DNA of 64,000 nt from a virus (IMGVR_UViG_3300042940_001755); one strand, 5' to 3'. Counted from the stretch's first letter, positions 16,022-19,193 are shown. Numbers and translations: made by a program. Notes: generated by a model from the sequence alone, not told the origin.

Positions 16022-17341
16022 TTAGCATATAACACCTGCTCTTGCTCTCTTGCGAATGTCTTCAAGGGAATCATCACAGTACGGCTGACCATTGAAGTAA
16101 TAGTCAACAAAGTCTGGATGTGTCAATCTGCCGCCCTTAGAGCGCTTACCAGGGTCTGTGACAGGGTCTTTCACAGTATCCACCCATTTGCCATTGATCT
16201 CCATCGCTGAAGTCTTTTGAGCAAACTTATAGGTGTCTCTGTTTAGTTTCTGTAGCAAGCCGCCTCCAGAACCATACACGACATTCTCGGCTGCGTAACC
16301 TTCTTGTTCCACTACTTGTGTCAGCTTTACTAACGTCTCGAAGTCAATACCATCCCCTTGAATGATGCCGACATTGCTCAAGACCTTGTAGCCTTTCGAG
16401 TTAACTGTGCTTTCAAAATACGCGTCAAGTATCTCCAGGATTAGAGGGATTACTTCGACAGCATCACCACTGTCAGGGCGGATAACAGCCTTGATTTTTC
16501 TTCTCTGAATTTCTGCACCGAAGACATTACAGAACATGGAGGTATCATTGTAGATATCATATCCGTCTAACACGATTGACACTATGCCACCATCAGGGAT
16601 AGCATCTAGTACTCTACGTAAATATCCTCCCTGATTGTCCCTTCCGTACGCACATTGAACACTATGTTCCGTCGCAGGGATAGAGAAGCCAGCCATTCTG
16701 CAGAAGTAATTGTCACGCGCCATTATCAGCGCTTGCAGGTTATCAGTTCCTTGGAAGTTAACTAAATGTGCCACACCACCAATTGCAGCTGACTCTCTGG
16801 AAGTTACGCCCCTGGCACCAAAGTCATGGAGAGCGTACGCAGCCATTTCAGGTACATCTGAAGTCTGTGCATACAACGATTCCAACAGCAATCGAGCCTT
16901 TAGGCCGTTAGAGGCAATCGTTGTAGGATACCAGATAGCTCTCTGCAACGCCGTTTCAATATACGACGCTAGCCAGAACAGTCTTGGATCTGTTGTCTCA
17001 ATCACCACTAAGGGTGTCCGAGATGGTACCACAGAGCCTTCAGGTAAGCCTTGTATTAGCAGTGGCAGAAAGCCATTGTGCTCGTCCACAATAATCTCCC
17101 AACCAATCTTATTAAAGGGCACCCCATGCGCGGAGAAGAGTTTCTCCGCTTCTCTTATATCCCCGTGAGTAACAGGCGTTGAGAGATACTCACGGATGAA
17201 CATTTGAAGACCAAAGAAGCAAGTAGCTTCGTTTGCTACTCTCGCTTCGATATAGGCGAACTGGCCTGTGCTGCCTTCTGGGTAGAATGCTGCATGTGAA
17301 GCTTTGTAGCTGTCAGCGTTTAAGATTAAATTGTGACTCAT
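16022..17341 (-). CDS. nadV: Nicotinamide phosphoribosyltransferase (NAMPT/NadV)
   Basis: N-terminal ADSYKASH motif diagnostic of NAMPT, plus ~440 aa length and the GDG/GSGGGLLQ phosphoribosyltransferase core. Confidence 0.85.
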   Translation of the reverse strand: MSHNLILNADSYKASHAAFYPEGSTGQFAYIEARVANEATCFFGLQMFIREYLSTPVTHGDIREAEKLFSAHGVPFNKIGWEIIVDEHNGFLPLLIQGLPEGSVVPSRTPLVVIETTDPRLFWLASYIETALQRAIWYPTTIASNGLKARLLLESLYAQTSDVPEMAAYALHDFGARGVTSRESAAIGGVAHLVNFQGTDNLQALIMARDNYFCRMAGFSIPATEHSVQCAYGRDNQGGYLRRVLDAIPDGGIVSIVLDGYDIYNDTSMFCNVFGAEIQRRKIKAVIRPDSGDAVEVIPLILEILDAYFESTVNSKGYKVLSNVGIIQGDGIDFETLVKLTQVVEQEGYAAENVVYGSGGGLLQKLNRDTYKFAQKTSAMEINGKWVDTVKDPVTDPGKRSKGGRLTHPDFVDYYFNGQPYCDDSLEDIRKRARAGVIC

Positions 17342-17682
17342 TGTTGTTCTCCTCTAGTCAGATTAGCCGCGTTGTCTTCGGCGTAGGTGTTAGGGTTTCT
17401 TTCAGGGTAGTAGCTTTTGCTGAAGCTGCTGCAGTCAGCGACATCAACTCTTTTCTCATACCCTACAGTAGCTTCAGGGTGACTGTGTAACCAGATGTCG
17501 CCCATTCTACTAGCGCCTGTGACGCGGTAGCGATTGCCCTCGAAGGTGCAGAATAGCTTGTACTCTGCGATAAGCTCCTTGAAGGCTATCTGATTGATTG
17601 CTGGGAGCCGCATCAGTAGTAACGCAAATCTCGCATACGTCACTGTGTCTGGCCCATGATCGATAAAGTCATCTACATCCAT
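17338..17682 (-). CDS. hypothetical protein (114 aa)
   Basis: Co-oriented ORF between nadV and the NMNAT-Nudix gene. Confidence 0.45.
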   Translation of the reverse strand: MDVDDFIDHGPDTVTYARFALLLMRLPAINQIAFKELIAEYKLFCTFEGNRYRVTGASRMGDIWLHSHPEATVGYEKRVDVADCSSFSKSYYPERNPNTYAEDNAANLTRGEQQ

Positions 17683-17688
17683 TATTTC

Positions 17689-17988
17689 TTACCCCACAAA
17701 GTTGATTTGAATGGCGAAGTTAGAGCCATCATAGAATAGCCGCTCGATAACAACCTGCTCCACATCAAAAAGGCCTACATCTGTATCGACAATATAGGGC
17801 TCACTTGGTGCGTAGTTGTCATCATCTTCTTTCCACTCGGCTAGCCACTCAGCGACGGCTAGCTCGGCCACTTCCTGCGCTTTACTGAACTCGTTTCCAT
17901 GAAGGACTGCTAAAACTTCCGCTACTTCTTGCACAGCCAATACGACAATGTACTTGGCATCAGTCGGTACTTCTAACTTACTGTACAT
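17689..17988 (-). CDS. hypothetical highly acidic protein (99 aa)
   Basis: Co-oriented ORF. Confidence 0.45.
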   Translation of the reverse strand: MYSKLEVPTDAKYIVVLAVQEVAEVLAVLHGNEFSKAQEVAELAVAEWLAEWKEDDDNYAPSEPYIVDTDVGLFDVEQVVIERLFYDGSNFAIQINFVG

Positions 17989-18233
17989 ACTACACTCCTA
18001 TAAAGAAAGCCCCGCCGGAATTGACGAGGCTATTTTACCGCTAATTACCGCTCATACCAATTGTGGTCATCATTATTGTAATCGAGGTTCTCTTCAGCCG
18101 CTCTTTTAGCGTTAGCGATTTGGTAAGGGTCTTTCATGAACTTTTTCACCTCTTCCTTACTCTTTCCTTTCGCCCAGCCTGTCAAAATCGCGTTCCAATT
18201 AGTCTCTCTTAAATTGCCACACATGCTTCCTCC

Positions 18234-19193
18234 TCAACTATGATAAACTGCACCAGTTACGTGGGCAGGGGTTAATTTCACATCCAACATTTTGCAGATA
18301 ATAGCACGATGATCGCTGAACAATCTCAGTGTATCTATCGCAGACTGCACCTCAAGCCAAGCACAATCTTCGGCGTCATCCGCTGCTATTGGCGCTATGT
18401 ATTCTTCTAGCGTAGCCCAGAACGCGATAGTGACACGCGGGATGCCATTGTTCTGCATATGGCGGGAAGGACAATGAAAGGTTTCACTTCCTCTGAAGCG
18501 AGCATTTCGGACACCAGTCTCTTCCTCTAACTCTCTTTTGGCGCAGGCTAGCGCTGACTCGTTCGCATTCTTGAACCCTCCAGGAAGCGCCCATGAACCA
18601 CGTCCAGGGGAGTTCTTCCTCCGAATTAGAAGTATCTTGCCATTACAGGTCAAGACCGTGTCTGCAGTTACAAAATGAAGTGAGTCGGCGTACGGATAGT
18701 CTTTGAACATAGCTTTCTCGGACTCAGTATACGCATACTCCTCAAGTACCGATTCAGGCAAATTGCGCTCAAGAAGTAATTGCTCTCGGATTTCGGTACC
18801 TGAGACGTGGTGGCTGTTCTCCATCTCTTGATAGTGGTACTCAGGGAACCAATAGAGGTAGTCATTGCCGTCCTTGGCGTGTCCGAACAAGGTTACATTG
18901 CAAGCATCTTCACCTAGATAGATTCCGATGGTGGCTCTTACTTCTTTCTGCCAAGCATCATCATCGTATGGATGATCATTCAAAGGTGCCACTAAGACGC
19001 GGGAACCAAACATGCGTCTGAAATGTTCTCTACGCTCTGCGAAGGTGTATGGGTTACGTAGAGATGGTTCTACATTTGCAGAACCGATTAATACAAGAAC
19101 TAAATCACATTTAGTGACCATTTCAGCTACGATGCTGACATGTCCAGCGTGTAAAGGCTGAAACCTTCCAATAAAAACACCTAACTTCTTCAT
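18234..19193 (-). CDS. natV: Bifunctional NMN adenylyltransferase / Nudix hydrolase (NadM-Nudix, NatV-like)
   Basis: N-terminal GRFQPLHAGH nucleotidyltransferase (H/T)xGH motif; C-terminal Nudix box GGFKNANESALACAKRELEEETG. Confidence 0.8.
   Translation of the reverse strand: MKKLGVFIGRFQPLHAGHVSIVAEMVTKCDLVLVLIGSANVEPSLRNPYTFAERREHFRRMFGSRVLVAPLNDHPYDDDAWQKEVRATIGIYLGEDACNVTLFGHAKDGNDYLYWFPEYHYQEMENSHHVSGTEIREQLLLERNLPESVLEEYAYTESEKAMFKDYPYADSLHFVTADTVLTCNGKILLIRRKNSPGRGSWALPGGFKNANESALACAKRELEEETGVRNARFRGSETFHCPSRHMQNNGIPRVTIAFWATLEEYIAPIAADDAEDCAWLEVQSAIDTLRLFSDHRAIICKMLDVKLTPAHVTGAVYHS

Follow-up and report, generated by a model that had tools for sequence, protein, structure and literature searches.

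A probable NARP2-type NAD+ salvage module in an uncultured phage of about 107.5 kb

Introduction

What would a phage gain from carrying two genes of nicotinamide adenine dinucleotide (NAD+) synthesis close together? This question is raised by positions 16022-19193 of the viral sequence IMGVR_UViG_3300042940_001755, of which one stretch of 64,000 nucleotides (nt), here called the window and used for all coordinates, was analysed. An earlier, sequence-only reading had proposed that the locus encodes a nicotinamide phosphoribosyltransferase (NadV) and, close by, a fusion of a nicotinamide mononucleotide (NMN) adenylyltransferase (NMNAT) with a Nudix hydrolase, which would form a complete NAD+ salvage cassette, probably directed against bacterial defence systems that deplete NAD+. 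Having followed up this proposal computationally, we consider it probable that the locus is a two-enzyme NAD+ salvage module of the NARP2 type, carried by an uncultured phage with a genome of about 107.5 kb.

NARP2 is defined by a Nampt-clade enzyme together with an Nmnat homologue, and its model is the pair from phage KVP40, which produced NAD+ and eliminated the protection given by type I Thoeris and DSR2 (Osterman et al., bioRxiv 10.1101/2024.02.11.579819). The same work describes NARP1, in which Namat, itself a Nampt homologue, acts with the PRPS-like protein Adps; Adps adjoins Namat in 97% of cases, Nmnat is present in 94% of phages with a Nampt homologue, and no phage was found to have both pathways. 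Namat and Nampt share the same Pfam domains, so that domain matches alone cannot tell them apart.

Results

NadV, a protein of 439 amino acids (aa) with the N-terminus MSHNLILNADSYKASH, is encoded at 16022-17341 on the minus strand, which carries every gene around the cassette. It matches the Pfam families NAMPT_N (PF18127; 2.1e-21, 76.4 bits against a cutoff of 25) and NAPRTase (PF04095; 4.8e-50, 171 bits against a cutoff of 20.8) as well as PHROG 448, 'nicotinamide phosphoribosyl transferase' (6.9e-129), and it lies above the curated cutoff of NCBIfam NF006629, with 496.9 versus 405 bits. Its best relatives in the PDB are the Xanthomonas NAMPT 7yqo (2.5e-121) and human NAMPT (1.7e-88). All 12 human active-site residues that we checked are retained in the alignment: Y18, F193, R196, D219, H247 and R311 correspond to Y12, F174, R177, D200, H226 and R288 of NadV, and D313, G353, D354, G383, G384 and R392 to D290, G329, D330, G359, G360 and R368. 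Among these human residues, D219 confers nicotinamide specificity and H247 is the site of autophosphorylation. By these matches NadV is predicted to be a nicotinamide phosphoribosyltransferase (Nampt), in line with the earlier assignment and with the JGI annotation, which already gives the protein its correct name.

The second enzyme, NMNAT-Nudix (319 aa; 18234-19193, minus strand), is of the NadM/NatV type. It has Pfam matches to CTP_transf_like (9e-09) and NUDIX (9.1e-19) and PHROG matches to families 395, 1198 and 3462. Residues 9-18 read GRFQPLHAGH, so that the N-terminal domain contains H15-A-G17-H18, and further along T133-E-I-R136; the C-terminal domain has a full Nudix box at residues 205-228, arranged as G206-x5-E212-x7-R220-E221-L-E-E224-E225-T-G-V. 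The HxGH and SxTxxR motifs and a Nudix box of the form GX5EX7REUXEEXGU are thus combined in one polypeptide, and each key residue is kept in 119-120 of 120 homologues. In a PDB search both domains aligned with the NadM-Nudix proteins of Francisella (2qjt, 5.5e-36) and Synechocystis (2qjo, 4.3e-30). The KVP40 natV product matches with 31.5% identity over 95% of the query (E 7e-35), while the best match from a cultured phage is that of Acidovorax phage ACP17, at 39.8% identity. A tblastn search with NMNAT-Nudix matched 485 phage records, and the full-length matches listed are all in genomes of 120 kb or more; peptide patterns of NMNAT-Nudix, searched for in IMG/VR, led to no confirmed relative. 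We conclude from motifs and profiles that this protein joins an NMN adenylyltransferase and a Nudix hydrolase in one chain, for which the name given by JGI is 'bifunctional NMN adenylyltransferase/nudix hydrolase'. The fusion call of the sequence-only reading is thereby borne out.

To place NadV, a neighbour-joining tree was built from nine sequences, a sample smaller than the published tree: the query, four Nampt (ACP17, L007, nt-1 and phiEap-3) and four Namat. NadM was seen adjacent in ACP17 and L007 and is assumed from related phages for nt-1 and phiEap-3; on the Namat side, Nigalana, Halena and Barba19A have an annotated PRPS-like gene directly upstream, and Staphylococcus phage 812 has an unannotated open reading frame (ORF) of 302 aa in that place. 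In each of 500 bootstraps NadV joined the Nampt sequences, and it is 40-43% identical to the Nampt set, as against 31-33% to the Namat set. In the same alignment, the column of human G384 (G360 in NadV) holds G in five of five Nampt-type sequences and S in four of four Namat, and could, in this very small sample, serve to discriminate between the two. We found no PRPS-like Adps among the scanned ORFs of the window and the precomputed Pfam annotation, covering about 77 of the 107.5 kb of the genome (about 72%), and no PnuC, NadR (the NARP3 components) or phage synthetase for phosphoribosyl pyrophosphate (PRPP) in these inspected parts. A homologue of the KVP40 Nmnat (NatV) is encoded in the same genome as NadV. 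Because NadV is placed in the Nampt clade and not in the Namat clade, and natV is matched, we assign the module to the NARP2 type, the absence of Adps being provisional for the genome as a whole; the earlier assignment to NARP2 therefore holds.

The genes are transcribed in the order NMNAT-Nudix, ORF59, ORF99, ORF114, NadV, and the interval 16022-19193 reaches exactly from the stop codon of NadV to the start codon of NMNAT-Nudix, as had been proposed. Three small genes separate the enzymes, not two as first read: ORF59 (59 aa, 18045-18224), ORF99 (99 aa, 17689-17988) and ORF114 (114 aa, 17338-17682), all on the minus strand and all preceded by a Shine-Dalgarno sequence and called publicly. Upstream of NMNAT-Nudix lies a gene of 267 aa (19195-19998, minus strand, or 19195-20013 if an upstream TTG is the start), and downstream of NadV a small ORF of 53 aa (15867-16028, minus strand). 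From the 267-aa gene down to ORF114 the gaps measure 1, 9, 56 and 6 nt; the stop codon of ORF114 overlaps the start of NadV by 4 nt (ATGA), and NadV overlaps the 53-aa ORF by 7 nt. A GGAG or GAGG ribosome-binding site stands before each gene of the cassette region, and in identical contigs public gene callers predict the same genes, including all three small ORFs. The module follows genes for DNA polymerase, helicases, thioredoxin and ribonucleotide reductase (RNR) and precedes a ligase gene, and since this run is tightly packed on one strand among middle-type genes, the NAD genes are probably co-transcribed with genes of replication and nucleotide metabolism. Between RNR and the NAD module there is also a gene for an SPFH/Band 7 protein (21492-22766, minus strand, 424 aa), an unusual gene for a phage, which recurs at the same position (423 aa) in the nearest relative, a contig designated P0002 whose NMNAT-Nudix is 67% identical.

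The 99-aa and 114-aa ORFs had been described as acidic, as flanking the enzymes and as candidate accessory factors. They lie between the enzymes, and the acidity applies to ORF99 (isoelectric point 4.05) and not to ORF114, which at 5.07 is not strongly acidic. ORF59 and ORF99 have no Pfam, PHROG or NCBIfam match, and neither has a tblastn match in sequenced phages. ORF59 adjoins NMNAT-Nudix downstream and has the ribosome-binding site GAGGAGG; a 59-aa ORF is also found between the enzymes in the P0002 contig, a likeness seen in length and position. For ORF99, only one other cluster was found among 1.84 billion representatives, with 52% identity, on a 1.2-kb contig with different neighbours, and the nearest relative has no such gene at the matching place. 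ORF99 is thus close to being an orphan and is probably a passenger.

ORF114 belongs to a family with 87 homologues, none of which has a Pfam domain. The shared domain comprises about 90 aa; ORF114 has a helical segment at its N-terminus and a beta-barrel of SH3/KOW/Tudor-like type, and the motif RYRVTGASRMGDIWL is invariant in the alignment of the family. In the nearest relative, the gene immediately before NAMPT encodes a homologue of 154 aa, P0126 (58% identity). Elsewhere, the homologues in D69 (Vibrio), YerA41 (Yersinia), L009, L010 and L011 have no NAD genes as neighbours, and those in LucasX and RTH11 are more than 40 kb from NadV. Linkage of the small ORFs to NAD genes is thus not conserved outside the nearest relative, which speaks against the accessory role first suggested, and we rejected ORF114 as a NARP2 accessory factor on the context of its homologues in other phages. 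The 267-aa upstream gene is Fe/2OG-oxygenase-like by fold search only, comparisons with the PDB by single sequence and by profile being uninformative; NAD genes do not adjoin its homologues in RSL1 and in Erwinia and Serratia jumbo phages, and it is missing from the matching position in the nearest relative. Most likely, the three small ORFs and the Fe/2OG-oxygenase-like gene are unrelated neighbours.

Within the cassette, only the 56 nt between ORF59 and ORF99 form a real intergenic gap. A terminator and promoter scan found there a stem-loop of nine pairs followed by the U-rich UUUCUUUAUA (18008-18031, minus strand), and a weak sigma-70-like match at 18060-18032. The stem-loop has a folding energy of -16.7 kcal/mol and a z-score of -1.44, and so is not significantly stabler than shuffled sequence; it may be an intrinsic terminator or an attenuator. 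As a recurring signal, the combination of a hairpin with TTCTTTATA was ruled out by its lack of enrichment (five matches against 3.9 expected). An Rfam scan of 13-23 kb, covering for example NAD+ riboswitches, returned nothing above chance.

The sequence-only reading had taken the genome for that of a T7-like podovirus with a small early-gene repertoire. Such phages have genomes of about 40 kb, lack a tape-measure protein and encode their single-subunit RNA polymerase, of about 880 aa, in one piece. Here, an identical contig (JGI 3300044516, Ga0453750_0000058; 107,670 bp) begins at window position 12942 and runs round to cover the start of the window, so that the genome is circular or circularly permuted and about 107.5 kb long. 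Nearly all of its genes are on one strand. A DNA search with 15800-20100 gave no near-identical match among sequenced phages, hence there is no cultured close relative. The DNA polymerase does belong to the T7-type family A, with 33% identity to its best cultured match, and the genome further has genes for a primase-helicase, a UvrD-like helicase, thioredoxin, both RNR subunits, the SPFH protein and an ATP-dependent ligase. The single-subunit RNA polymerase of T7/N4 type is split into parts of 513 aa (42112-43653, minus strand) and 254 aa (40853-41617, minus strand) separated by about 500 nt, and just past the window end there is a protein of 4092 aa that carries TMP_3 and Glucosaminidase domains. 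Size, RNR, ligase, split polymerase and TMP_3 protein together contradict the podovirus assignment, and with it falls the argument that an NAD+ module is notable in such a phage. In the survey of Iyer et al. (2022, PMC9503650), NadV occurs in 22% of the phages classed there as medium-sized and in 33% of jumbo phages, and no phage with NadM is reported to lack NadV. The phage stands at the small end of the size range for the pair and is not an outlier of kind.

Several further features of the genome were recorded. The split RNA polymerase recalls the two-subunit RNAPII of N4-like phages, and should the 4092-aa protein be a genuine tape measure, an unusually long tail would be expected. Another protein just past the window end, of 2751 aa and without a family match, has its C-terminal 1703 aa encoded at 58887-63998 of the window. 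A motif of about 40 nt (plus strand ...CTTTCATATAAGATA...GCGCG) occurs five times, at 13333-13373, 47131-47171, 48999-49039, 49620-49660 and 50520-50560; four of the five copies are in the small-ORF region at 47-51 kb, and the repeats are candidate promoters of an early region. Terminator-like hairpins AGAGAGACGGAATTGTCTCTCT stand at 45740, 46235, 47484 and 48603. The window begins with two 161-nt tandem copies that are 93% identical (1-322), and about four copies of the 21-nt unit GAGGGTAAGGTTTGGCTTACT follow at 1227-1352; these repeats may be origin-, terminus- or iteron-like elements. Paralogous pairs of genes or segments with 73-89% DNA identity were seen at 38717-39016/39307-39606, 4973-5593/7574-8155, 47193-47472/48293-48572 and 45453-45731/48679-48957.

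Discussion

If both enzymes act as their motifs predict, NadV would convert nicotinamide and host-made PRPP into NMN, which the NMNAT domain would join with ATP to give NAD+. The Nudix domain would most likely split ADP-ribose, and possibly NAD(H), into AMP and ribose-5-phosphate, from which the host PRPP synthetase could form PRPP again. The net outcome would be an NAD+ level held high during infection, presumably also in hosts whose TIR, SIR2 or similar effectors break NAD+ down to ADP-ribose and nicotinamide. The description of the pathway as complete goes too far in one respect, as it needs host PRPP and no phage PRPP synthetase was found. By analogy with KVP40, an anti-defence role in this phage is plausible, with a narrower range than had been claimed: of the systems first named (Thoeris, DSR, SIR2-type and SEFIR), NARP2 was tested against type I Thoeris and DSR2 only, and the longer list of SIR2-HerA, DSR1 and SEFIR belongs to NARP1 (bioRxiv 10.1101/2024.02.11.579819).

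A number of observations weigh against this interpretation. NMNAT-Nudix lies below every NCBIfam cutoff for NadM equivalogs, the best score being 193 versus 397 bits (PRK05379 subfamilies); to judge by these scores it represents a divergent phage lineage, homologous but not equivalog to the curated bacterial subfamilies, and it may prefer other substrates. At the C-terminus, NadV falls about 20-60 aa short of its homologues (439 versus 458-497 aa), a feature shared with the 437-aa NAMPT of the nearest relative. The hairpin between ORF59 and ORF99 might, on evidence that is weak, uncouple their expression. An Adps gene is formally conceivable in the roughly 30 kb beyond the inspected parts, presumably the structural region. 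Finally, middle-type metabolic genes surround the module, which is thus away from the repeat-rich, presumed early region at 45-51 kb; this position suits counter-defence and a general role in metabolism equally.

Such a role, in which the pair is an auxiliary metabolic module that raises NAD+ for phage replication and nucleotide metabolism irrespective of any host defence, was the first proposal for the KVP40 pair. It would account for a location amid RNR, thioredoxin, helicase and ligase genes and for the frequency of NadV in medium-sized and jumbo phages in the survey of Iyer et al. (2022, PMC9503650), and NARP2 raised NAD+ also in cells free of any defence system (bioRxiv 10.1101/2024.02.11.579819). 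However, the phage ligase matches ATP-dependent families, which leaves no obvious phage enzyme in need of NAD+, and NARP2 consumes PRPP that is needed for nucleotide synthesis; moreover, the KVP40 operon was toxic in E. coli (bioRxiv 10.1101/2024.02.11.579819). A cost of this kind, in PRPP and toxicity, is easier to explain if the benefit is survival of NAD+ depletion. The two roles are mutually compatible, with counter-defence at most a side effect if metabolism comes first, and we hold a general metabolic function of this kind to be rather unlikely, though a live rival. It is far more doubtful that the phosphoribosyltransferase is a Namat of NARP1 type, using ADPR-pyrophosphate from an Adps encoded elsewhere in the genome. 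The homology of Namat and Nampt and the 30 kb outside inspection leave some space for this, yet every bootstrap sets NadV with the Nampt of phages that carry NadM, the protein has G where the four sampled Namat have S, its neighbours are ORF114 and the 53-aa ORF in place of the Adps that nearly always adjoins Namat, and an Nmnat partner is present, while the preprint found the two pathways in no phage together. Taken together, we regard a Namat here as highly improbable.

The small ORFs might, on the other hand, be partners in the pathway: ORF59 and ORF114, possibly with ORF99, could be regulators that limit the drain on PRPP, or independent anti-defence proteins. In the 67%-identical relative the enzymes likewise enclose a 59-aa ORF and P0126 at matching places, ORF114 appears translationally coupled to NadV through the ATGA overlap, and LucasX and RTH11 carry both an ORF114 homologue and NadV. 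Shared position in two close relatives, though, is what common descent alone predicts. In ACP17, L007 and L008 the enzymes are directly adjacent with nothing between them, in KVP40-like phages such as CZ01 they are tens of kb apart, and ORF114 homologues occur away from NAD genes in D69, YerA41 and L009-L011 and at more than 40 kb from NadV in LucasX and RTH11; ORF99, for its part, is nearly orphan and has another context elsewhere. A partnership of this kind seems improbable to us, and slightly more so the specific proposition that ORF59 and the SH3-like ORF114, coupled to NadV, are true components of the module, either within it or as separate anti-defence proteins. If they were, they might hold back a PRPP-draining and potentially toxic NARP2 until NAD+ falls, which would make this a regulated or extended NARP2 variant.

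The module adds another example of a known pathway in an uncultured lineage and nothing new to the pathway itself: the enzymes and their likely role have been described, automated annotation already names both proteins, and the NMNAT-Nudix and NAMPT pair is found in several hundred sequenced phages. The genome is slightly smaller than any with a full-length NMNAT-Nudix match among those listed. The finding fits the view of NAD+ as a common battleground of phages and bacteria and leaves it unchanged; its practical value is that of a well-annotated example of the pair, with a small SH3-like family between the enzymes of two related phages as a minor lead.

As regards the known systems, the whole catalytic region of NadV aligns with the Xanthomonas and human NAMPT (7yqo, 2gvg), and the catalytic regions of NMNAT-Nudix align throughout with the NadM-Nudix proteins of Francisella tularensis (2qjt/2r5w) and Synechocystis (slr0787, 2qjo), with active-site motifs kept in both cases. 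With NARP1 (Adps and Namat) and NARP3 (PnuC and NadR) the module shares the strategy of rebuilding NAD+ rather than inhibiting the defence, but it is set apart from both by having no Adps, PnuC or NadR in the parts inspected. Its NadV, though homologous to Namat, falls outside the Namat group, and the predicted substrates are PRPP and nicotinamide, whereas NARP1 and NARP3 draw on ADPR-PP or nicotinamide riboside. KVP40 NARP2 (NadV and NatV; Lee et al. 2017, as cited in later papers) consists of the same two enzyme families with the same domain architecture, including the Nudix fusion, and the catalytic motifs are intact in both window enzymes, while the sequences are distant from KVP40-type enzymes, at about 30-42% identity; the NadV of nt-1, a large Vibrio myovirus of the Straboviridae, is 42% identical to that of the window. 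The carriers differ as well, KVP40 being a 245-kb T4-like myovirus and the present phage having about 107.5 kb, a family A DNA polymerase and a split RNA polymerase. In KVP40, natV is at 94.5 kb, and neither nadV nor natV is present in the 8-57 kb that we examined; in its relative, Vibrio phage CZ01, the enzymes are some 40 kb apart, compared with 0.9 kb and three small ORFs in the window. Closest in arrangement are ACP17, L007, L008 and the P0002 contig, which all have NMNAT-Nudix and NAMPT in the same order and orientation as the window. The first three place nothing where the window has three ORFs and a possible terminator, and P0002 is a syntenic relative, with RNR, SPFH, NMNAT-Nudix, the 59-aa ORF, the ORF114 homologue, NAMPT and ligase.

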